A stretch of 48,003 nt of DNA, taken from positions 1-48,003 of the forward strand of contig CAZTRC010000003.1 in assembly GCA_964615845.1 (NCBI GenBank), given 5' to 3'. Positions 1,082 to 46,390 of this stretch are shown piece after piece. The stretch comes from an uncultured Candidatus Saccharibacteria bacterium. Lineage in GTDB: Bacteria; Patescibacteriota; Minisyncoccia; Phycocordibacterales; CSBR16-119. Position numbers and translations under genes: made by a program. Below the pieces are notes generated by a model. The model did no database searches, had not been told where the DNA came from, and saw only the letters and a program-made list of their open reading frames with translations. Positions within the stretch are counted from its first letter, which is position 1. Each line of letters starts with the position of its first letter.

Positions 1082-3619
1082 ATGTCTATAGTTTCATCTA
1101 TAAAAGATATGTTCGGGGACGGCAATGCCGGCTTTTTGAAAGAGGCCGAAAAGGTGGTCAAAGCAGTGAACGCCTTGGAGGCGGGTCTAACTGAGCTCTC
1201 GGCCGAAGAATTCCCTAAGCGCACAAATGCTTTAAAAGAACGCTTTTTGGCTGGGGAAACTCTGGACCAGATATTGCCAGAAGCTTTTGCTCTGGTTCGC
1301 GAAGCCTCGAAAAGGACTCGCGGCCAGCGCCACTATGATGTCCAAATAATCGGCGGATACGCGCTTCACAAAGGCAAAATTGCCGAGATGAAAACCGGCG
1401 AAGGTAAGACTCTCGTTGCGACGCTACCTGTGTACCTGAACGCTATCGCGGGCCAAGGCGTCCATGTCGTGACCGTCAACGACTTCCTCGCGCGCCGCGA
1501 CGCCACGTGGATGGGGCAGATCTACGCCTACCTCGGGCTCACTGTCGCCGTCGTGAATTCCCAAAATGTTTCTTATATATATGATAGCGCGGCCGATCCA
1601 GCCAAAGACAAAGAACGCGACGAAGTCGGTTCATTCAAAGTCGTGTATGAATTTCTAAAACCTTGTGGTCGCAAAGAGGCATACGCCGCTGACATCACTT
1701 ACGGCACCAACAACGAATATGGTTTTGATTATTTGCGCGACAACTTGGCTCAAAATACTTCTGGGCTTGTCCAGCGCGGACATTATTTCGCCGTCGTTGA
1801 CGAAGTCGACTCTATCCTCATCGACGAGGCCCGCACTCCGCTTATCATCTCTGCTCCAGCCGAAGAATCTGGCGAGCTTTATGTGCGTTTTGCGGAAATT
1901 TCCAAACAACTGCAACCAGAAACTCACTACGGCATCGACGAAAAGCTTCGTGCCATCACCTTGAACGACGCCGGTATCGAACTCGCCGAGAAACTCCTCG
2001 GAATTGAAAACATTTATACTGAAAAAGGCATCAAATACGTCCACCACCTCGAGACAGCGGTGCGAGCCAGCGCGCTTTTCAAACGCGACAAAGAATATGT
2101 GGTCAACAACGGCGAAGTTATCATCATCGACCAATCAACTGGGCGCATGATGCCAGGCCGAAGATTCAATCAAGGCCTTCACCAAGCGCTCGAAGCCAAA
2201 GAAGGCGTCGAGATCAAGCAGGAAACCAAGACTGTCGCTTCGATCACTTACCAAAACTACTTCAGGTTTTACAAAAAGTTAAGCGGTATGACCGGTACGG
2301 CCAAGACTTCGCAAGAAGAGTTTTACACCGTCTACGGTCTCGACGTCATTAGCATCCCGACCAATGTCCCGGTAGCGCGCCTCGATCATGATGACCTCAT
2401 TTTCCAAACCGAGAAGGGCAAATTCCAAGCGATTGCGCGTAAAATAAAAGAAGTGAACCAAACCGGCCAGCCTATCCTCATCGGTACCATCTCGATCGAA
2501 CGCAACGAACTCTTGTCAGAATACCTCCGCAAAGAAGGCATTTCGCACACGATCTTGAACGCCAAGAAACACGAGTCCGAAGGCGAGATCGTAGCCTCAG
2601 CTGGAAAGCTCGGCGCGGTGACGATCGCGACCAACATGGCAGGTCGTGGTATCGACATCAAGCTCGGCGGGGAAATGGCGACGCCGGAACAGCACGCTCA
2701 AGTGAAATCTCTCGGCGGACTCTTTGTCCTCGGAACTGAGCGCCATGAATCTCGCCGTATCGACAACCAGCTCCGCGGACGCTCCGGCCGCCAAGGCGAT
2801 CCGGGCGCGACACAATTTTTCGTCTCTCTCGATGACGACCTCATGCGTATCTTCGGCGGAGATAGGATGAAAGCCATGATGGGTAGATTTGGCATCAGTG
2901 AAGACGAGCCGATCAAAAACAGCTTCATCAGCCGGGCTATCGAGAGTGCCCAGAAGAAAATCGAAGGCTTCAATTTCGATTCGCGAAAGAACACGCTCGA
3001 ATATGACAACGTCCTAAATACCCAGAGAAATGCTATCTACGCTCGCCGAAAGAAGATGCTCTCGGCTCCGGACGCTGAAATACAGGAGTTCTTGTTTGAA
3101 ATCGCGCCGGATAGGGTGAAAATGGAGGAGCTGATTGCGGCGAAAATCCAAGAAGTCGGCGAAGCGCAATTTTATAACACCGCTCGCCGGATTATTCTCT
3201 ACGTCACCGACATCTTGTGGATTGAGCACCTAGAGACGATGGATCATGTCCGCTCATCCGTGAATCTCCGCGCCTACGGCCAAAGAGAGCCGATTATCGA
3301 ATACAAGAAAGAAGGCTTGAACTTCTTCAACCAAATGGAAGCATCCCTCAAAGAGCAGGTCTTGTCTCTCATCGACACCATCCGCGTCGCCGCCGCGTCA
3401 GCCGAAGCTCCGAAAGAAGCGCCGAAGCAATACATGGAGAGCGGCGGGGGAACTGAGTCCGAAAACGCTGGCCAAACCATCCAAAAATCCGAAGAAGACA
3501 AAATCGGGCGTAACGACATTGTCATTATCCAAAAGGGAACTGAAACTCAAGAAATTAAATACAAAAAAGCGGAGCAATTGCTCGCGGAAGGATGGACGAT
3601 AAAGGAGGTTAAGAAATAA
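1082..3619 (+). CDS. secA: preprotein translocase ATPase SecA
   Basis: 845 aa. Walker A is MKTGEGKT, the DEAD-like box is VDEVDSILIDEARTPLIIS, and the motifs TGMTGTA and RGRSGRQGDPG are unmistakable SecA signatures. Confidence 0.98.
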   Translation: MSIVSSIKDMFGDGNAGFLKEAEKVVKAVNALEAGLTELSAEEFPKRTNALKERFLAGETLDQILPEAFALVREASKRTRGQRHYDVQIIGGYALHKGKIAEMKTGEGKTLVATLPVYLNAIAGQGVHVVTVNDFLARRDATWMGQIYAYLGLTVAVVNSQNVSYIYDSAADPAKDKERDEVGSFKVVYEFLKPCGRKEAYAADITYGTNNEYGFDYLRDNLAQNTSGLVQRGHYFAVVDEVDSILIDEARTPLIISAPAEESGELYVRFAEISKQLQPETHYGIDEKLRAITLNDAGIELAEKLLGIENIYTEKGIKYVHHLETAVRASALFKRDKEYVVNNGEVIIIDQSTGRMMPGRRFNQGLHQALEAKEGVEIKQETKTVASITYQNYFRFYKKLSGMTGTAKTSQEEFYTVYGLDVISIPTNVPVARLDHDDLIFQTEKGKFQAIARKIKEVNQTGQPILIGTISIERNELLSEYLRKEGISHTILNAKKHESEGEIVASAGKLGAVTIATNMAGRGIDIKLGGEMATPEQHAQVKSLGGLFVLGTERHESRRIDNQLRGRSGRQGDPGATQFFVSLDDDLMRIFGGDRMKAMMGRFGISEDEPIKNSFISRAIESAQKKIEGFNFDSRKNTLEYDNVLNTQRNAIYARRKKMLSAPDAEIQEFLFEIAPDRVKMEELIAAKIQEVGEAQFYNTARRIILYVTDILWIEHLETMDHVRSSVNLRAYGQREPIIEYKKEGLNFFNQMEASLKEQVLSLIDTIRVAAASAEAPKEAPKQYMESGGGTESENAGQTIQKSEEDKIGRNDIVIIQKGTETQEIKYKKAEQLLAEGWTIKEVKK

Positions 3620-3667: not shown

Positions 3668-3994
3668 TCAATCTTTCTTGGTTAGCGCTTGTTCGAACCT
3701 CAGGGTTCCATACACCGCTGCTCGATTAGCAATGGTGGAGATTATCCACTGAAGGTCTCGTATCCGCTTAGGGTCCATTTCGGAGAGGATCTCATCCAAT
3801 TCCGCGAATGTTTCCTCTTCCATGACGTCAGCTGGTTCCAACTCCATGATGTCAGTTATCTCACCGACAATACTGAGGTCTTCAGCGACGCTTTCCCTGG
3901 AAGTACCCGCGGGACGTGTAAGGAAACTCACTGTCATCGTTGGATTGGTTCCCAAGCTCTTGAGCATCAGGAGAAAGAACTGTCGTTTCATCAT
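3668..3994 (-). CDS. hypothetical acidic protein (108 aa)
   Basis: This is the most protein-like of three overlapping ORFs. The + strand alternatives are Ser/Leu/Cys-rich shadows. It ends next to the shared terminator. No recognisable motif. Confidence 0.45.
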   Translation of the reverse strand: MMKRQFFLLMLKSLGTNPTMTVSFLTRPAGTSRESVAEDLSIVGEITDIMELEPADVMEEETFAELDEILSEMDPKRIRDLQWIISTIANRAAVYGTLRFEQALTKKD

Positions 3995-4188
3995 CTTGAG
4001 TTTAGTTGGTCCACAATTTATGATATTTTATAGCTTTTGTCAACTTTTAAATCGTCTTTTTAGCCGGCTTTTGGCGGGGGAGTCGATTTTACGAATCCAA
4101 AATTCTATAATAATCAATTCCCAAAATCACCCAAAAACCCTTGTAAAACAAGGCTTCCTGGCATTTGACAGATTCGGCTTTTTATGGC

Positions 4189-4335: not shown

Positions 4336-4962
4336 ATGAATAAAAACATAACCAATAAACTACACTCATTTATCCTTTTACCTCTCTTGCTTGGTAACAT
4401 TGCAAGCCCGGACGTCCTCTCTAAAGAGGTTGCTCCAGAGAAAGAAGTGCAGAATGAAAGCCTAGGATTGAACTTTAAAATCTTCAGTAACTCTCTCAAA
4501 GAAAAAACCGACTTCGTTGTCATCGACAATCGTGCAGCCAAGATCGACGCTTACTTCGCCCAGTGGGATCTCCCGCTTGCAGGCCATGGTAAGGGTATGA
4601 TCGAAGCCGCCGACAAATATGGTATCGACTGGAGACTTCTCCCGGCGCTTGCCATGCTCGAGACGACTGGCGGTAAAAATCTCTGTGGTAATGGTACGAA
4701 CTTGAACGCTTTCGGTTTTGGATCATGTAAGATTCACTTCTCGACGTTCGAAGCTTCGTTCGAAGCTGTCGCCAAGACTGTTTCTGGTAACGGAGAAAAG
4801 ACTTCACACCTTTATAAAGGTAAGTCTGTCCCGGAAATTCTCGAGGTTTACAATCCTCCAGAAGTTGTCGGTATCATGCCAAACTATCACAAGAAAGCTT
4901 TGAAGGTCATGGAAGAGATCAATGAAATGTCAGTTGAAACTAGCTTCCTAGTTCAAGCCTAA
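4336..4962 (+). CDS. secreted protein, putative peptidoglycan hydrolase (glucosaminidase/lysozyme-like)
   Basis: There is an N-terminal hydrophobic signal (LHSFILLPLLLGNIASP). The segment YGIDWRLLPALAMLETTGGKNLCG...NAFGFG resembles the catalytic-Glu region of muramidase/glucosaminidase folds. Confidence 0.45.
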   Translation: MNKNITNKLHSFILLPLLLGNIASPDVLSKEVAPEKEVQNESLGLNFKIFSNSLKEKTDFVVIDNRAAKIDAYFAQWDLPLAGHGKGMIEAADKYGIDWRLLPALAMLETTGGKNLCGNGTNLNAFGFGSCKIHFSTFEASFEAVAKTVSGNGEKTSHLYKGKSVPEILEVYNPPEVVGIMPNYHKKALKVMEEINEMSVETSFLVQA

Positions 4963-5002
4963 TACAAAAAGACCCCAAGCATTTGCGAGGGGTCTTTTTG
5001 TA
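4963..5002. terminator. bidirectional intrinsic terminator
   Basis: TACAAAAAGACCCC ... GGGGTCTTTTTGTA forms a 14-bp stem with A and T runs on both sides. It lies between convergent stops at 4962 and 5003. Confidence 0.85.
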
Positions 5003-8000
5003 TTAAATAATTTCTTTTATCTCATCTATCACGATCGTTTTCTCGCCGTCGCGAATGCTGACTTTGCCTTTGATGGCTAGAATTTTATCGACGAGGAGGG
5101 AATTCATTTGTTTCTTGTAAATCGTCGGGAAGGCGACGGCCTCAATCGTACCCGAGAGATCTTCGAGTTGGATGAACGCCATTTGCTGATTTTTCTTTGT
5201 GATGATGATTTTCACTGTTTGTACAACACAAGCCAGCGTCACCGGCTGGTCTTGGCGACCAACAGTTTTAATTTTCAAAATATTCGTACCAGATTTCTCA
5301 ATCTTTTCACGAATATCATCGAGCGGATGACCAGAGACGTATAGTCCAAGCAATTCTTTTTCCCAGGCCAGCTTTGTCTTTGGTGTCGCGGGCGCTGAGT
5401 CATTTAGGTGGAGTATTGATTTGGGTGCCAAGCTTCCACCAAACAGGCTGCCCTGGTCTTTGTCAGTTTTCGAAAATGATTTATTGAACTCTGTCAGGTT
5501 TTCAACATTTGCCACCAGCACTCCGCGATCGCCAAATGAATCCATCGCGCCGGACTTGATGAGAGCTTCGAGAGACTTTTTGTTCACGTTTTTGTGCGTG
5601 ACGCGTTCGAGGAAGTCGGCGAGACTTGTGAATTTGCCGCGAACCCTTCTTTCTTCGATGATGGCGTCAGCGATGTCGGTGCCGAGGTTTTTGATGGTAT
5701 AAAAACCGAAGCGGATAGCGTCTATACCGGTATCGTTTTTGATAACCGTGAATCCACCAAAACATTCGTTAACGTCAGGAGGTAAGACCTTGATTCCCAT
5801 ACGGTCGCACTCGTGAATAATTTCTGAGATTTTTTCGACATCACCGGATTCGGCGGTGAGAATTGCTGTCATGTAAGGAACAGGAAAGTTCGCTTTCATG
5901 TATCCCGTTTGGTAAGCGACGCGCCCGTAACTTGCAGCATGGGCTTTGTTGAATCCGTATGCGGCGAATGGTTCGATCAGAAGCCATAGAGCATTTGCTT
6001 TGTCTTTCGGTAGTCCATTTTTAATAAATCCCGAAATCAGTTTTTCTTTCTCAGCGGCCATAACTTCGGGGATCTTTTTACCCATGGCCTTTCGGAGCTT
6101 GTCGGCTTCGAGCCAGCTGTAACCGCCGAGATGTATAGCGATGAGGAGGACGTCGTCTTGATATGTAATGACGCCATATGACTGAGACAGAATTTCTTTC
6201 ATCCGAGGGTCTAGGTATTTTATGAGGTGTGAGTTTTGTTTACGTCTGATGTACTCGGGAATGATTTCCATTGGTCCAGGTCGATAGAGGGCGACCATGG
6301 CATTGATGTCGTCGATAACAGTTGGACGGAGCTCCTTCAAGTACCGCGTCATGCCTGAGCCGTTTAGTTGGAAGAGTCCGATAGTTTCTCCGCGGGCAAG
6401 CATCTCGTAAGTCTTTCTGTTATCCATGGGGATGTTTTCAATGTCGACAATAACGCCCTCAGTCTTTTCTACAAGTCTGACTGCGTCAGCGAGGATTGCC
6501 AAGTTTCTGATTCCAAGAAAGTCGAATTTGATAAGCCCGGCAGACTCAACGGCGTGCATGTCGTATTGAGTGATGATCTTTCCGCCCTTTGGGTCGAGCT
6601 GAATTGGCGCGTAGTCGTCGACTCTGGTCGGTGAGATCACGACACCAGCGGCGTGAACAGAGATGTGGCGAGCACAGCCTTCGATTTTCTTTGCGAGGTC
6701 TATTATTTCTTTTGTTGCTTTGTCCTTGTCGTATTGTTCGGAGAGCTCCGGAACCATCTTTAAAGCCTTGTCGATAGTCATGGCGAAGCCTTGCTTGCCA
6801 AGAGGGATTAGTTTTGAAATTTTGTCACCGACACCGTATGGATAACCGAGTGCGCGCGCGACGTCACGGACGGAACCGCGGGCCATCATTGTTCCAAAAG
6901 TTCCGATCTGAGCGACGGCATTCTCGCCATACTTTTTTCGGGCGTAATCGATAACTTCGTCACGGCGGTTATCAGCAAAGTCCATGTCAATATCCGGCGC
7001 TGAAGGTCGCTCAGGGTTTAGGAATCTTTCGAACGGGAGTTTGAAGTGGAGCGGGTCGACGTTGGTGATGCCAAGGAGGTATGTACAGATTGAACCTGCC
7101 ACCGATCCTCGGATGTTCGTCAATATTTTGTTTTCTGAAGCGAAACGGATAAGGTCTGCCACGATGAGGAGGTAAATAGAGAAGCCTTTGTTCTTGATGA
7201 TCTCAAGCTCGTACTCGATACGTTTTTCGATTTCTTCTCGGCTTTCGCCGTAGCGACGAGGAATTCCTGCATATACATATTTGCGAAGTTGGGATTCGGC
7301 ATCTTCGCCGGGTTCCAATTCGAATTTGGGAAAGACCCATTTGCCGAGCTCGATTTGGATATCCACCATGTCGGCGATTTTGCCAGTGTTCTCGACAGCT
7401 TCCGGCACGTCTTTGAAATATTCTAGAGCTTCGTTTTGGTCGATGAGGTGATAGTCGCCGGACATTTCGAGATCACGGCTATTGGTATTGATGGCAAGCA
7501 GAGTCTTGTGCGCTTCCTTGTCATCTTGGTGCAGATAATGTGAATCCCAAGTGGCGACAACAGGAATATCGAATTTCTTGCTCAAGGCCCGCACTCCTTC
7601 TTTCAATATTTCATAATTGTCGACTTCCTTGTGGCCCATGAGTTCGAGAAAGAAATTCTCTTTACCAAAAATGTCTTGATATTTTTTGATGATATTTTCG
7701 GCGCGTTCATCGTTCTTGGCGCGAATGGCATTTGCGAGTTCTCCGGCGGGACAACCCGAAAGGCAGATGATACCTTCAGCATGTTTACGGAGAATTTCTT
7801 CATCCATGCGCGGCTTGTAATAATAGCCATCGATGAAGGAGGCCGAGACAAGCTTCATGAGATTCCTGTAGCCGGTGTTGTTCTTGGCGAGGAGGGTTAG
7901 GTGATAGCGTTTGTTGTCGATATTTGGTTCTTTGTCTTTACGGCCGCGTTCGGCGATGTAAGCTTCGACGCCGATAATGGGCTTGATGCCTGCATCAAGG

Positions 8001-11997: not shown

Positions 11998-13245
11998 ATG
12001 AATCAAAACAACCCATTTCAAAATTACTTGGACAACTTGGCGCGAGCGGGCGAGGCTCTGGGGCTCACTCCGGCCGAAATCGAAAAACTATCCGTACCGC
12101 AAAATATTATCCAGTCAGACCTCGTCATCAAAACTTCCAAAGGCGATGAGACATTTCCGGCCTATCGGGTGCAATTCAATAATGCGCGCGGACCATTCAA
12201 GGGCGGTATCAGATTCCATCCAGCGGCCGACCTTGATGAAGTGAAGGCTCTCGCGGCTCTCATGGCGGTTAAATGCGCTGTCGTTGGCATTCCTCTCGGC
12301 GGAGCCAAGGGCGGGGTGACCATAGATCCGAAGCAATATGGTGCTAAAGATTTGGAATTGGTCGCGCGCGCTTGGGCCCGCGCGATGCAGCCGCACATAG
12401 GGGTCGCCAAGGACATCCCAGCTCCGGACGTGTACACCAACAGCCAGACGATGGCGCACATTTTGGATGAGTATGAGCAGATTGTCGGACACGAAGAGTT
12501 TGGTGTCATCACCGGGAAGCCTCTCGAGCTCGGCGGATCACTTGGCAGGAATATCGCGACGGCTCAAGGCGGCATCTACGTCCTCTCTGAACTTTTACAA
12601 AATATGAATTTGCGTCCGGAGGACATGCGTGTCGCAGTCCAGGGTTTCGGTAATGCCGGTTATACTGCAGCGTCAATCCTCCACAACATGGATTACAAAA
12701 TCGTGGCGGTGTCGGACTCGTCCGGCGGCATTTATGCCGAGGGCGGGCTCGACCCCGAAGAACTCAATCGTTTCAAAGAAGAAGGCAAAAGTCTGTCAGA
12801 ATTTTCCAAAGATGGTTTCAAGAATATTACGAACGAAGAACTCCTCGTGTCTCCCTGCGATATCTTGATTCCAGCGGCGCTCGACAATCAGATTACCAAA
12901 GAAAATGCCGGAGATATCAAAGCGAAAATCGTGTTAGAGCTTGCCAACGGCCCGACGACTCCCGAAGCCGACGCAATTCTTTTCGAGAAAGGAATCACCC
13001 TCATTCCAGATGTCTTGGCCAATGCCGGCGGCGTCACGGTTTCGTATTTTGAGTGGGTTCAAAACAGGAGCGGCGACAGATGGAAAGAAACGGACGTTTT
13101 GCAAAAATTAAAAGATATCATGTCCGAGAGCTTCAAAGGCGTTTATGCTCTGGCCAAAGAGAAAAATATCGACTTGCGTCTCGGAGCTTTCTCCCTAGGT
13201 GTCAAAAGGATTGTTGACGCGATGAAATTGAGAGGACGGATATAA
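11998..13245 (+). CDS. gdhA: Glu/Leu/Phe/Val-family dehydrogenase, most likely glutamate dehydrogenase
   Basis: 415 aa. GPFKGGIRFHP is the catalytic Lys motif, GIPLGGAKGG is present, and the Rossmann motif is VQGFGNAG. Confidence 0.9.
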   Translation: MNQNNPFQNYLDNLARAGEALGLTPAEIEKLSVPQNIIQSDLVIKTSKGDETFPAYRVQFNNARGPFKGGIRFHPAADLDEVKALAALMAVKCAVVGIPLGGAKGGVTIDPKQYGAKDLELVARAWARAMQPHIGVAKDIPAPDVYTNSQTMAHILDEYEQIVGHEEFGVITGKPLELGGSLGRNIATAQGGIYVLSELLQNMNLRPEDMRVAVQGFGNAGYTAASILHNMDYKIVAVSDSSGGIYAEGGLDPEELNRFKEEGKSLSEFSKDGFKNITNEELLVSPCDILIPAALDNQITKENAGDIKAKIVLELANGPTTPEADAILFEKGITLIPDVLANAGGVTVSYFEWVQNRSGDRWKETDVLQKLKDIMSESFKGVYALAKEKNIDLRLGAFSLGVKRIVDAMKLRGRI

Positions 13246-13249
13246 TTAA

Positions 13250-13347
13250 GCCGGGGCGCTTTCGTGATTTTTTCGGTCCTCGGGTCGGCCAGAGGGTCGG
13301 GGCGATGGCCTCAACCAGACACGCAAAAATCACGAAAGCGCCCCGGC
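13250..13347. repeat. long perfect hairpin with conserved split core, copy 1
   Basis: 13250-13272 is the exact reverse complement of 13325-13347 (23 bp). The 52-nt interior shares a 15-nt 5' block and a 13-nt 3' block with the reverse complement of the interior of 44928-45024. Confidence 0.9.
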
Positions 13348-17806: not shown

Positions 17807-17815
17807 AATCTCCAA

Positions 17816-17850
17816 TACAAAAGCCCCACGTCTGACGTGGGGCTTTTGTA
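17816..17850. terminator. bidirectional intrinsic terminator
   Basis: TACAAAAGCCCCACG-TCTGA-CGTGGGGCTTTTGTA forms a 15-bp stem. Confidence 0.85.
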
Positions 17851-17855
17851 TAGAT

Positions 17856-40701: not shown

Positions 40702-40798
40702 GGTCAGGAGTGTTTCGTTGATGTTGAATGTGTCTACCTCATACTATAGCATAATATCTTACTATTTGTCAAGGCCCTAAACCCCCGAAAATTTCTTT

Positions 40799-40866
40799 GC
40801 CCCCACACCTATTTTTTGATCGCGCCAAGGGTGCATTGAAAATAATCAAAAAATAGGTGTGGGGGC
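40799..40866. repeat. long perfect hairpin (22-bp arms, 24-nt loop)
   Basis: GCCCCCACACCTATTTTTTGAT (40799-40820) is the exact reverse complement of ATCAAAAAATAGGTGTGGGGGC (40845-40866). The loop is CGCGCCAAGGGTGCATTGAAAATA. Confidence 0.9.
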
Positions 40867-40902
40867 TTTGAAAAAAGCCGCTTTTTTGCTAAAATACGGC
40901 CC

Positions 40903-41526
40903 ATGATTATCCAATATTTCGGCAAGCAGTTTTTCAAAATTTCCCAAGGCGATTTCACCGTGGCCGTGAATCCGATTTCCAAAGATTCTAAAGAATTCAA
41001 CAAAGCCAAATTTGGCTCGAACGCCGTTTTGGTGACCACCAATCATTCTGATTTTAACGGTATTGATTCCGCAACCTTTGGCGAGAGCATGCCTTTTGTT
41101 GTCGATGGTCCTGGCGAATATGAGGTTGGCGATATGTACGTCCAAGGCTTCGAATCTAAAGCCGAAATCGAAAAAAAGGATTATATCAACACCATTTACC
41201 TCATCACTTACGATGATATGAAAATCGTTTTCATCGGCGCACTTGCCAGCAAAGACTCCATTCCGAAAGCTTTTGTCGAAGCCGTCGATGAACCAGACCT
41301 CTTCTTTGTGCCGATTGGTGGCAAATCCACGATCGATGCCGCGACCGCCCAAAAGCTCGCAAACTCTTTTAATGCTAAAATGGTAGTGCCGATGGATTAC
41401 GATAAAGAGTCTCTGAAAGTCTTTTTGAAAGAAGCTGGCGCCGAAGGGGTCAAGCCTATCGACAAGCTCACAATCAAGAAAAAGGATTTTGTCGGCAAGA
41501 CGGGTGAGGTTATAATTTTTGAATAA
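40903..41526 (+). CDS. MBL-fold (beta-lactamase-fold, UPF0173-like) protein with a degenerate metal motif
   Basis: 207 aa. The N-terminus MIIQYFGKQFFKI...VAVNP resembles the family, but the HxHxDH position reads TNHSDF. The 305-aa antisense ORF is a shadow. Confidence 0.5.
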   Translation: MIIQYFGKQFFKISQGDFTVAVNPISKDSKEFNKAKFGSNAVLVTTNHSDFNGIDSATFGESMPFVVDGPGEYEVGDMYVQGFESKAEIEKKDYINTIYLITYDDMKIVFIGALASKDSIPKAFVEAVDEPDLFFVPIGGKSTIDAATAQKLANSFNAKMVVPMDYDKESLKVFLKEAGAEGVKPIDKLTIKKKDFVGKTGEVIIFE

Positions 41527-44292: not shown

Positions 44293-44387
44293 GAGTGCTC
44301 CGCAAAACATGATTTTTTTGCTTCGCTTGGAAGTGATTGCGTTTTTCAACTTCCTGCTTACTGCTTTCTACTTTATACTTACTCAAT

Positions 44388-44921
44388 ATGATCGATGATC
44401 CAAAAAGAATTGTGCAAGATTTTGGAATAAGAGAGGGAAGCGTTGTGGCTGACCTCGGAGTTGGCTATGGACACTATGTCTATGCTTTGAGTGAGGCGGT
44501 CGGTGAGACCGGTAAGGTCTTTGCCATCGATGTGCAGAAGGTAATGATCGAACGCTTGAAGAAAGAAGTCGAAGAAAAAGGTGTCAAAAATATCGAAATC
44601 ATTTGGGGTGACATCGAGACGCTCGGCGGGACAAAATTGCGCGAAGCGTCCGTTGATGCGGTCATTGTCTCCAATGTCTTGTTTCAGATTGATTCCAAAG
44701 CCGGATTTGTGCAGGAGTGCGGACGGATCTTGAAGACGGGCGGCCGTCTTCTCCTCATTGACTGGCAAGAATCCTTTGGCGGCTTAGGACCACAAGTGAA
44801 CGCTGTTATTGATGAAGCGACAGCGGAGCGCATTTTCGAGACTGGACCGTTCGAATACAAAAAGCCGATTGACGCCGGCGAGCATCACTACGGCATGGTT
44901 TTTGAGAAAAAGAGTTTGTAG
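44388..44921 (+). CDS. class I SAM-dependent methyltransferase
   Basis: Motif I is VADLGVGYGHY, and post-I acidic and motif II/III spacing follow (VFAIDV...). The ATG at 44388 is preferred over the track start at 44337. Confidence 0.8.
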   Translation: MIDDPKRIVQDFGIREGSVVADLGVGYGHYVYALSEAVGETGKVFAIDVQKVMIERLKKEVEEKGVKNIEIIWGDIETLGGTKLREASVDAVIVSNVLFQIDSKAGFVQECGRILKTGGRLLLIDWQESFGGLGPQVNAVIDEATAERIFETGPFEYKKPIDAGEHHYGMVFEKKSL

Positions 44922-44927
44922 CATAAA

Positions 44928-45024
44928 CAAATCTGGAGTCGTATTTTCTGAGTGTCTGGTTGAGCCGCAAAAGACGCAGTCTGGCGGCGACCCGAGGACC
45001 GAAGAAAATACGACTCCAGATTTG
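44928..45024. repeat. long perfect hairpin with conserved split core, copy 2 (core inverted relative to copy 1)
   Basis: CAAATCTGGAGTCGTATTTTCT (44928-44949) is the exact reverse complement of 45003-45024. The reverse complement of the 53-nt interior is TCGGTCCTCGGGTCG-CCGC-CAGACTGCGTCTTTT-GCGG-CTCAACCAGACACTC. Confidence 0.9.
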
Positions 45025-45088: not shown

Positions 45089-46390
45089 ATGAAAGGATTT
45101 CAAATCGGCGTTCTTATTTTCTTTGGCGTTTTTGTCTTTTTAGGCGTTCTTATTTTTTCCGGCGCGATTAAATTACCATCGAAAGGGGGCGGTGATGCAC
45201 AAATTACAACCGGGGTGATCAAGATTTGGGGAACTGTTTCGAAGAAAAACCTATCAGCCGCGATTTCCTTCCTAAATAATCAAAACCCAAATACTGTAAT
45301 TATCTACGAAGAGAAGGACCCTCGTACATATAGCGACGACCTCCTAAATGCTTTTGCTTTTGGCGGTGTCCCCGATCTTTTTCTCTTGTCTCAAGATCTT
45401 ATAATTACTTACGAAGATAAAATAATTTCGATCCCCTTCGACTCTTTCCCAGAGAGAACATTCAATGACACGTATATTCGCGCAGCAGATGTCTTCAAGC
45501 GTCAAACAGGATTTCTAGGCTTTCCAATATTTTCTGATCCGCTTGTCATGTACTACAATCAAGATCTTTTGGAATCCGAAAACTTTACCGTACCACCAAA
45601 ATACTGGAAAGATTTACTCGAATACGTGCCTCGTTTAACTAAGAAAAATGACGCCTTGCAGATTTTGACTAGCGGTGTGGCTCTTGGTGAATTTTCAAAT
45701 ATTAAAAATGCCAAAGAAATATTTTTGGCTATGAATCTACAACTAAATAATCCTATCGTCGTTTTTGATTTAGAGAAAGGTTATATCCCCGTATTGAAAG
45801 AAGCTTCCGATGTTTCTGCTCGTCCAGCTATTCAATCTTTAAATTTTTTCAACGAATTTTCAAATCCCGTCAAAAGTGTCTATTCTTGGAACAAATCCAA
45901 ACCGAACTCACAAAATGCTTTTATCGCTGGTGATCTCGCCATTTACTTTGGCTTGTCTAGCGAATTCCGAAACATAGAGCAGAAAAATCCAAATCTTAAT
46001 TTTGACGTCGCCATGATTCCCCAAGTAGAAGAGCTTTCAAACAAAATTACTTACGCCGATGTCTATGCTTTGGCTATCCCTAAAAATACGACAAATGCTC
46101 AAATGGCCTTATCCGTTGCTGCCAACCTAGCTAATGGCGCGAACACTGCGGCGATTGTTGGTTCGAGCGGTTTTGCTCCAATGCGCCGTGACCTTGTCGG
46201 AAGTCCAGGGGGCAACACTTCAAATATTGTGTTCTACAACTCGGCTTTGAATTCCAGGTCTTGGTTTGATTTTAACGATGAAATGACAACGAATATATTT
46301 AGTCAAATGAATGAAAATGTCATTTCTGGTCTGGAAAGCCTGGACGATGCAGTTGATGCGGCTAATACTGAATTAAGAAAAACACGTTAA
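45089..46390 (+). CDS. membrane-anchored extracellular solute-binding protein (ABC SBP family 1-like)
   Basis: 433 aa with an N-terminal TM anchor. The two-lobe SBP-like sequence includes ...GFPIFSDPLVMYYNQDLLE.... There are no permease or ATPase genes in the window. Confidence 0.6.
   Translation: MKGFQIGVLIFFGVFVFLGVLIFSGAIKLPSKGGGDAQITTGVIKIWGTVSKKNLSAAISFLNNQNPNTVIIYEEKDPRTYSDDLLNAFAFGGVPDLFLLSQDLIITYEDKIISIPFDSFPERTFNDTYIRAADVFKRQTGFLGFPIFSDPLVMYYNQDLLESENFTVPPKYWKDLLEYVPRLTKKNDALQILTSGVALGEFSNIKNAKEIFLAMNLQLNNPIVVFDLEKGYIPVLKEASDVSARPAIQSLNFFNEFSNPVKSVYSWNKSKPNSQNAFIAGDLAIYFGLSSEFRNIEQKNPNLNFDVAMIPQVEELSNKITYADVYALAIPKNTTNAQMALSVAANLANGANTAAIVGSSGFAPMRRDLVGSPGGNTSNIVFYNSALNSRSWFDFNDEMTTNIFSQMNENVISGLESLDDAVDAANTELRKTR

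Follow-up and report, generated by a model that had tools for sequence, protein, structure and literature searches.

A probable non-autonomous palindromic mobile element with an invariant core and free arms in Patescibacteria/CPR genomes

Rickettsia palindromic elements (RPEs) are palindromes of about 150 bp that fall into ten families, nearly half of the elements being in frame in metabolic genes of Rickettsia conorii (PMC10969869). Judged by organisation and placement, they appear to be the closest functional parallel to a hairpin element that occurs twice in the 48,003-nucleotide stretch of DNA analysed here (the window). The second copy (copy 2, positions 44928-45024) is probably an intergenic member of a family of non-autonomous palindromic mobile DNA elements, of MITE/RPE-like type, that has spread through Patescibacteria/CPR. 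Like the RPEs, these are palindromic repeats of ~100-150 bp in several families within reduced genomes, which lie in intergenic DNA but also, with unusual frequency, in frame within unrelated housekeeping genes, to which they add a peptide segment, copy 2 itself being intergenic. Unlike the RPEs, they are hosted by Patescibacteria and not by Alphaproteobacteria, they combine an invariant asymmetric core of ~24 nt with free complementary arms, and one subfamily has 7-bp target-site duplications. With bacterial MITEs (Correia/NEMIS of Neisseria, ERIC) the element shares its small size, its non-autonomous nature, inverted-repeat ends, target-site duplications (here in the one subfamily), presence/absence polymorphism, RNA hairpins when transcribed and in-place inversion; Correia elements provide the precedent for such inversion and for a functional internal site for a host factor (PMC10969869). 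In classical MITEs the terminal inverted repeats are conserved and match a parent IS whilst the interior drifts, whereas here the interior is conserved and the arms are free. The usual marks of a MITE are seen in a length below ~500 bp without a transposase gene, 22-bp perfect terminal arms, site polymorphism and many copies per genome, but a cognate autonomous IS with the same ends was not found in ~0.9 Mb searched. REP/BIME sequences with RAYT transposases are likewise multi-copy intergenic palindromes just past stop codons, REPs being recognised by structure over sequence; REPs are described as 20-40 bp long with a GTAG or CGTC tag (PMC3733652). The present element, in contrast, is ~100 bp long, has no tag and enters ORFs, whereas REPs are extragenic by definition. 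It resembles integron attC sites as an imperfect palindrome of variable sequence, with conserved structure and a few unpaired bases, directly past a stop codon, but it has no R''/R' core sites or cassette array, its conserved part is internal and not at the stem base, and copies lie inside genes. A conserved central domain in repeat families with differing ends is also known from the CORE-SINEs of vertebrates, which are eukaryotic retroposons without a hairpin; this likeness is an analogy only, with no relation by descent. The best-supported classification is that of a new variety among bacterial palindromic non-autonomous elements, the unusual feature of which is an invariant core with free arms.

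The original prediction, made from the window alone, described copy 2 as a hairpin with perfect arms and conserved blocks that is inverted relative to copy 1, and direct inspection bears this out. The arms (44928-44949, CAAATCTGGAGTCGTATTTTCT; 45003-45024, AGAAAATACGACTCCAGATTTG) are complementary at 22 of 22 positions around a 53-nt interior, and the blocks, GTGTCTGGTTGAG at 44952-44964 and CGACCCGAGGACCGA at 44988-45002, are the exact reverse complements of those of copy 1 (13310-13322 and 13273-13287, plus strand); both blocks, TCGGTCCTCGGGTCG and CTCAACCAGACAC, thus stand on the minus strand in copy 2 and on the plus strand in copy 1. Within the window they occur in these two copies only, even when 2-3 mismatches are allowed. 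Read in the orientation of the core, i.e. on the minus strand, copy 2 consists of the 5' arm of outer stem P1 (45003-45024, the right arm on the plus strand, assigned by complementarity and covariance-model alignment), core block 1 as UC-GGUCCUCGGGUCG (44988-45002, identical in copy 1 (13273-13287) and at all loci of the scan described below), the variable inner hairpin P2 (44965-44987, a CCGC...GCGG stem with an AGAC/GUCU tip, identified by folding), core block 2 (CUCAACCAGAC) with the 4-nt junction ACUC (44950-44964, an exact match to copy 1 and at least 130 CPR copies), and the 3' arm of P1 (44928-44949, the left arm on the plus strand, complementary at 22 of 22 positions to 45003-45024 and corresponding to positions 80-101 of covariance model R1). 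The additional AGAC/GTCT mini-hairpin that had been reported for copy 2 is indeed present, and forms the tip of P2. Copy 1 (13250-13347, plus strand) belongs to the same family and has different arms and P2 around an identical core; when both copies are aligned in the same direction, only the blocks and a few bases of the inner stem agree, and the outer stems and the central segment differ. With a covariance model built from other genomes only, the minus strand of copy 2 reaches 71.9 bits (E-value 2e-16) and its plus strand 27.7 bits, and the plus strand of copy 1 reaches 69.3 bits; the opposite strands of both copies score ~28 bits, and the model has no further match in the window. The opposite orientation of the two copies is an objective call, because the scores differ so sharply by strand. 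The fold energy of copy 2 is -56 kcal/mol (z = -9.1 against shuffles), and each of the two strands folds as a single long hairpin of about -55 kcal/mol (z about -9). With its 97 bp, the element contains no ORF of its own. As predicted, both copies lie close behind stop codons: copy 2 is separated by 6 nt from the end of the ORF of a class I SAM methyltransferase (44337-44921), upstream of which lies gyrA, and copy 1 starts 4 nt after a dehydrogenase ORF that ends at 13245. On the other side, 65 nt separate copy 2 from a solute-binding-protein (SBP) ORF (45089-46390). The window also contains a long palindrome just upstream of an ORF at 40903 (40792-40873; 29-nt arms, 90% complementary, around a 24-nt interior without the core) and two shorter perfect hairpins with A/T tracts (4960-5005 and 17815-17851), which have the look of bidirectional terminators.

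Copy 2 is a member of a phylum-wide family. A scan of one genome per prokaryotic species with the pattern GGTCCTCGGGTCG-N12-42-CTCAACCAGAC identified at least 118 loci, essentially all of them in Patescibacteria/CPR MAGs, with labels that include Parcubacteria, Paceibacterota, Nomurabacteria, Campbellbacteria and 'Saccharibacteria'. All 130 copies examined share one anatomy, i.e. a long variable stem P1 (median 24 bp, 95% Watson-Crick), GGUCCUCGGGUCG, a variable inner hairpin P2 of 12 to 42 nt, CUCAACCAGAC and the second arm of P1. Between families the arms differ yet remain complementary, and the asymmetric core of ~24 nt is identical. Copy number ranges from one in some genomes to dozens in others; among the first 80 loci listed, LBYO01 has 13 matches, MFAC01 11 and JBBTTR01 9, compared with 2 in the 48-kb window. 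The four loci of CAZQSY01 have four unrelated arm sequences, and other genomes hold many near-identical copies. Model R1 gave 118 matches at E<1e-6 in the window and 98 loci (0.78 Mb). A search of the window against Rfam 15 returned only a tRNA above the gathering threshold, located elsewhere in the window, and viral contigs and annotated phage and plasmid collections contained no match to the element. A literature search with the block sequences as strings retrieved unrelated primers only, and a search by topic retrieved nothing on CPR repeats; the ~100-bp CPR palindromic element is apparently undescribed so far in Rfam 15 or the searchable literature. At the protein level, a 38-column peptide profile gave one weak match among 5.8 billion proteins, the profile being too short to reach significance there. 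Two of the contigs with the element (L017 and L034; JAMPXW010000002.1 and JAMPXW010000001.1, each ~270 kb) are labelled 'Burkholderiales bacterium'. Their gene order is CPR-like and their element lies in the context FtsK / 114-aa protein / RecA that is also seen at the Nomurabacteria loci L065 and L110; the bin is probably a mislabelled CPR genome.

Syntenic contigs, reached via homologues of the methyltransferase, keep the order gyrA, methyltransferase and SBP gene, and they include sites with and without the element. In four relatives (L121, L206, L207 and L208; methyltransferase identity 76-82%) the site is empty, with AATTCACA and the promoter region of the SBP gene 1-6 nt behind the stop codon and with no palindrome, no terminator and neither element arm. 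The site is filled in the window and in L119 and L120 (both at 99% identity); L119 has three interior differences from the window, including a SNP in block 2 (at 44962), and none at the 44 arm positions, against a background divergence of 2.0%. The methyltransferase-SBP spacer is a polymorphic, repeatedly hit target. A comparison of syntenic loci had been proposed with the original prediction, as a way to see whether an empty site already carries a palindrome or terminator, and none of the four does. Nor do the syntenic relatives have a core-less hairpin as an ordinary conserved terminator, and the blocks are not part of a longer repeat unrelated to the hairpin. Since the empty sites are without a palindrome, the inserted unit is the whole hairpin of ~100 bp, beyond the core alone. 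Other palindromes are found in the same spacer. A second family (L122 3034-3196; L123/L124 3034-3300; 75-76% identity) has arms of ~20 bp and the interior TCAAATCCTRCG...RGTCCTCGGATTYTC, shares only the octamer GTCCTCGG with the element studied here, and is oriented oppositely in L122 and L123/L124. A third palindromic insertion lies directly at the SBP start codon (L123/L124 ~3215-3300; L206 ~700-830), with arms ATCCCGATAGTGGCCGCGGTCGC / GCGACCGCGACC..GCCACTATCGGGAT and a short flanking direct repeat, ATGAAA or GAA; it is absent from L121, L207, L208 and the window.

Of 124 copies, 33 are flanked by direct repeats of 6 nt or more, compared with 2 of 124 in an offset control. All of these belong to the high-copy subfamily with the TGAATTACGAAA terminus (termini CTNTGAATTACGAAA), and the repeats are typically 7 bp long and AT-rich; in another subfamily a possible 3-4-bp YTTC repeat was seen by eye, and window copies 1 and 2 have no clearly readable target-site duplication. 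The termini of the high-copy subfamily also enclose unrelated interiors in the same genomes, and in this subfamily the core hairpin is carried as cargo by a conventional MITE. MITE-like elements with the terminus CTTTGAATTACGAAAC and unrelated interiors were observed at L011 1336-1460, L040 2390-2560 and 3310-3440, L041 4038-4080, L069 4830-5010 and L078 665-800, one of them reduced to two termini with 14 nt between; such termini around unrelated interiors suggest that the Parcubacteria genomes concerned have an active transposase with these ends. Among the loci examined (~0.9 Mb), no autonomous parent or adjoining transposase was found, no block pair flanks an ORF, and no transposase stands beside solo termini. 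Inversion is seen in the PolA gene, where the copy in L092 is antisense and at least eight others at the same site are sense, and likewise in the second spacer family, with its opposite orientations in L122 and L123. Paired copies were found in the TsaD region, one upstream and one internal (L097 3683-3769 and 3998-4103), in Dus, one antisense at the N-terminal edge and the other internal (L010 4832-4930 and 5661-5765), and as near-identical copies in PheS and PheT (L042 4042-4146 and 6322-6426); such pairs in single or neighbouring genes suggest local hopping. The idea that the arms are copied from flanking target DNA was rejected, as the PheS and PheT copies of L042 share arms and the empty sites contain neither arm.

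An in-frame, stop-free position within an ORF longer than 150 codons is found for about 45 of the 130 copies. The hosts confirmed by Pfam comprise proteins of replication and repair (NAD-dependent DNA ligase (LigA), UvrD, UvrB, UvrC, RecJ and Pol III delta'), of tRNA metabolism and translation (CCA-adding enzyme, Tgt at two sites, LeuS, IleS, Dus, MnmA and TsaD), and others (an IscS-like desulfurase, an FAD oxidase, a sortase, a TrwB-like ATPase and a trypsin-like protease); PolA, PheS and PheT were assigned from sequence motifs. Depending on the frame, the core is translated as VLGS...AQPD, GPRV...LNQT or RSSGR..., and because it is read in several frames, its conservation is at the level of the nucleotides and not of the peptide. 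Of the independent intragenic insertions, ~25 have the core in sense orientation, on the coding strand, and 1-2 have it antisense (the protease of L114 and the inverted PolA copy of L092), whereas stop-codon content alone predicts a sense:antisense ratio of only ~1.3:1; in tandem intergenic contexts the ratio is 37:17. The proposed orientation independence relative to transcription therefore stands for the two window copies, which are opposite, but not for copies within ORFs, where the core is almost always on the coding strand. This sense bias may be due to peptide tolerance, the sense frames being hydrophilic and rich in G/S/P/Q, or it could reflect a constraint or role at the RNA level. Intergenic copies separate complete, unrelated genes, e.g. 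FtsK / 114-aa protein / RecA in three genomes. An intron or translational bypass was rejected, as the reading frame continues without a stop through every intragenic copy and none of the genes was found to be split or frameshifted by the element.

PolA genes fetched from metagenomes by the polymerase-domain sequence only provide an unbiased sample, unlike the exact-match scan. In the closest set of seven genes (64-74% identity), the core is exact in L127 and L129, L126 has perfect 25-bp arms around a divergent interior, L130 and L132 have a decayed core with arms at ~82% complementarity, L131 is partly deleted, and L128 contains a core-less 15-bp palindrome, with L125 similar. More distant PolA genes have no insert, or independent palindromes, among them a short variant in L156, GGTCCTCGGATCT-P2-CCAGACC (short form GGTCCTCGG...CCAGAC). 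The PolA linker is a permissive hot spot in which copies do die, and intact cores and intact arms tend to go together. Cores have decayed in many lineages and vary between near-identical strains. Strong purifying selection on the core in situ was rejected; the impression of it is partly one of ascertainment bias, the PolA sample including many decayed copies.

The stems covary strongly. In an alignment of 24 sequences of one subfamily, both sides have changed in 19 of 22 P1 pairs and 5 of 6 P2 pairs, and 189 cells are compensatory, where shuffles give 66.8±6.2 and slid registers 43-80. Model R1 was built from this alignment, and in 112 distinct copies aligned to it all 22 of 22 P1 pairs covary, 94.3% of cells are paired (61.2% in shuffles) and 1131 are compensatory (330±14 in shuffles), though this larger alignment is fitted to the model and its pairing statistics lean towards structure. 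G·U accounts for ~33 of ~2460 P1 cells against 178 other mismatches, which is the share expected from random mismatches, and an independent mismatch count gave 37 G·U, 47 A·C and 54 other. As G·U is no commoner than random, the helices behave as DNA complementarity, unlike wobble-tolerant RNA helices. The core is too invariant across intact copies for a pairing test; in its usual thermodynamic fold, GGUC pairs with GACC and GG with CC, leaving the internal loops CUC/A and GUC/UCAA. The core changes of decayed copies, C>T and G>A, are uncompensated, and for this reason the pairing of the core stays predicted only. PolA copies have replaced the arm sequence whilst retaining the core and perfect pairing. 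The arms of the close relatives L037, L105, L039 and L127 contain transition intermediates and one completed double substitution. This pattern fits selection for pairing as well as template-switch correction, a mutational process known to act on quasipalindromes (PMC7202029).

A functional structured RNA is classically marked by covarying helices that frame invariant internal loops, and the element has invariant asymmetric internal loops between its strongly covarying P1 and P2. It could accordingly be a functional structured RNA spread by mobile DNA, e.g. a protein- or ligand-binding motif, a processing or stability signal or a small ribozyme, and the identical core nucleotides across different reading frames, the strong sense bias in ORFs with the 37:17 ratio in tandem intergenic contexts, and the PolA copies that swap arm sequence and keep core and perfect pairing would all agree with this. 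We nevertheless regard such a role as unlikely: G·U is at the level of random mismatches with A·C at least as common, the window has one copy in each orientation relative to transcription, a promoter scan of the element was negative, cleavage or processing would harm the essential ORFs that host copies, and the core has decayed in many lineages and varies between near-identical strains. No Rfam family, hairpin ribozyme included, was detected at E up to 10; the searches around both copies returned nothing relevant (hairpin, twister, hatchet and pistol ribozymes, Y RNA and SRP included), and a known ribozyme, riboswitch or sRNA was rejected on this basis. The motif UCAACCAGA presumably occurs in the hairpin ribozyme as well, which is a lead at most; this likeness is at chance level or without Rfam support, as are those to a tRNA T-arm (L037 5562) and the sarcin-ricin loop (GAGGACCG).

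The purely Watson-Crick pairing would equally suit a DNA site that is used by the host and only secondarily repeated, either for attC-like recombination of a folded strand or for a nucleoid, replication or repair protein. The asymmetric conserved bases within a palindromic hairpin resemble the extrahelical bases of attC, copies 1 and 2 each follow a stop codon at a distance of a few nt, and the core is common to families with unrelated arms. However, neither window copy has R''/R' boxes (RYYYAAC/GTTRRRY) on inspection, there are no cassette arrays and copies lie inside ORFs, the empty sites of close relatives indicate that the locus works without the element, and copies decay and range from one to dozens per genome, which makes a host site of this kind very unlikely. 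We give least credence to a plain intrinsic (bidirectional) terminator of the methyltransferase gene with coincidentally shared blocks. A very stable hairpin 6 nt past the stop codon, in a window with other long intergenic hairpins with A/T tracts, would suggest one, but neither arm is followed by a U-tract (CTAACAG on the plus strand, TTTATGC on the minus strand), a terminator scan found none, the four syntenic relatives have no hairpin here, and the same core occurs at no fewer than 118 loci, some of them inside ORFs.

We therefore return to copy 2 as a copy of a mobile element. A phylum-wide family with empty sites is not what a gene-specific regulator or an ordinary terminator would give. 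The prediction had left the choice between a DNA-level function or mobility and a promoter of the element's own; mobility gains support from the empty sites and from the 7-bp duplications of one subfamily, and the promoter is not borne out, as no sigma-70-like pattern was found. Copy 2 most likely has no dedicated role for the flanking genes, because it has no promoter or terminator signature and four relatives live without the element; its local effect is probably just a very stable hairpin on the 3' end of the methyltransferase transcript. We propose that transposases encoded elsewhere mobilise the element in trans, and that its long inverted arms would let the interior flip in place, which would account for the inversion of copy 2 relative to copy 1 and to its neighbours. 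The arms may stay perfect largely through selection for transposable copies together with template-switch 'correction' of quasipalindromes, and selection at the RNA level would be unnecessary. The core is probably a cis-acting module for the propagation or persistence of the element, would not regulate the methyltransferase or SBP genes, and is likely to be bound, in a folded or bent state of the DNA, by a conserved factor of the host or of transposition; a factor that reads the core would explain its retention by families with different termini. Some observations count against the mobile-element reading: the copies of CAZQSY01, with their four unrelated arm sequences, are beyond what one terminus-recognising transposase can account for, no parent element or neighbouring transposase was found at the loci examined, and the window copies have no clear target-site duplication. 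More tentatively, and with some doubt on our part, the core could be the recognition module of a structure-specific mobilisation system, or a new functional RNA motif repeatedly captured by transposons. In the case of mobilisation, an enzyme or host factor would read the folded hairpin (a bulged GGUC-C-U-C-GG/CCAGACC helix and a GUCG/CUCAA loop) and ignore the arm sequence, such that any complementary arms could travel along. Either possibility, if true, would amount to a new kind of CPR-specific bacterial mobile module, one behind peptide insertions in at least 20 essential protein families.

The genomes of CPR/Patescibacteria are among the smallest and most streamlined, yet they carry a gene-invading repeat family that writes insertions of 30-40 residues into essential enzymes, among them DNA polymerase I, DNA ligase, UvrB/C and several aminoacyl-tRNA synthetases. 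After Rickettsia, this makes a second and independent example of 'selfish DNA in protein-coding genes', and suggests that selfish DNA in genes may be a general feature of reduced genomes. It accounts for some unexplained insertions and split gene calls in CPR proteins, and provides annotators with a feature that a covariance model can detect and that can be masked. The combination of an invariant core with free arms raises the testable question of what reads the core.

Two single genes merit separate mention. The PolA gene of L125 has an in-frame TAA at 3985-3995, where relatives have GAA (KLQ*ASIALW), and is split by gene callers; an 11-bp core-less inverted repeat lies in the linker just upstream, and the TAA could be a sequencing error, a pseudogene mutation or a case of recoding. 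The element-hosting IleS of L012 (2124-5711) also contains, according to Pfam, a complete histidine-phosphatase domain (His_Phos_1) between its catalytic and anticodon-binding parts.
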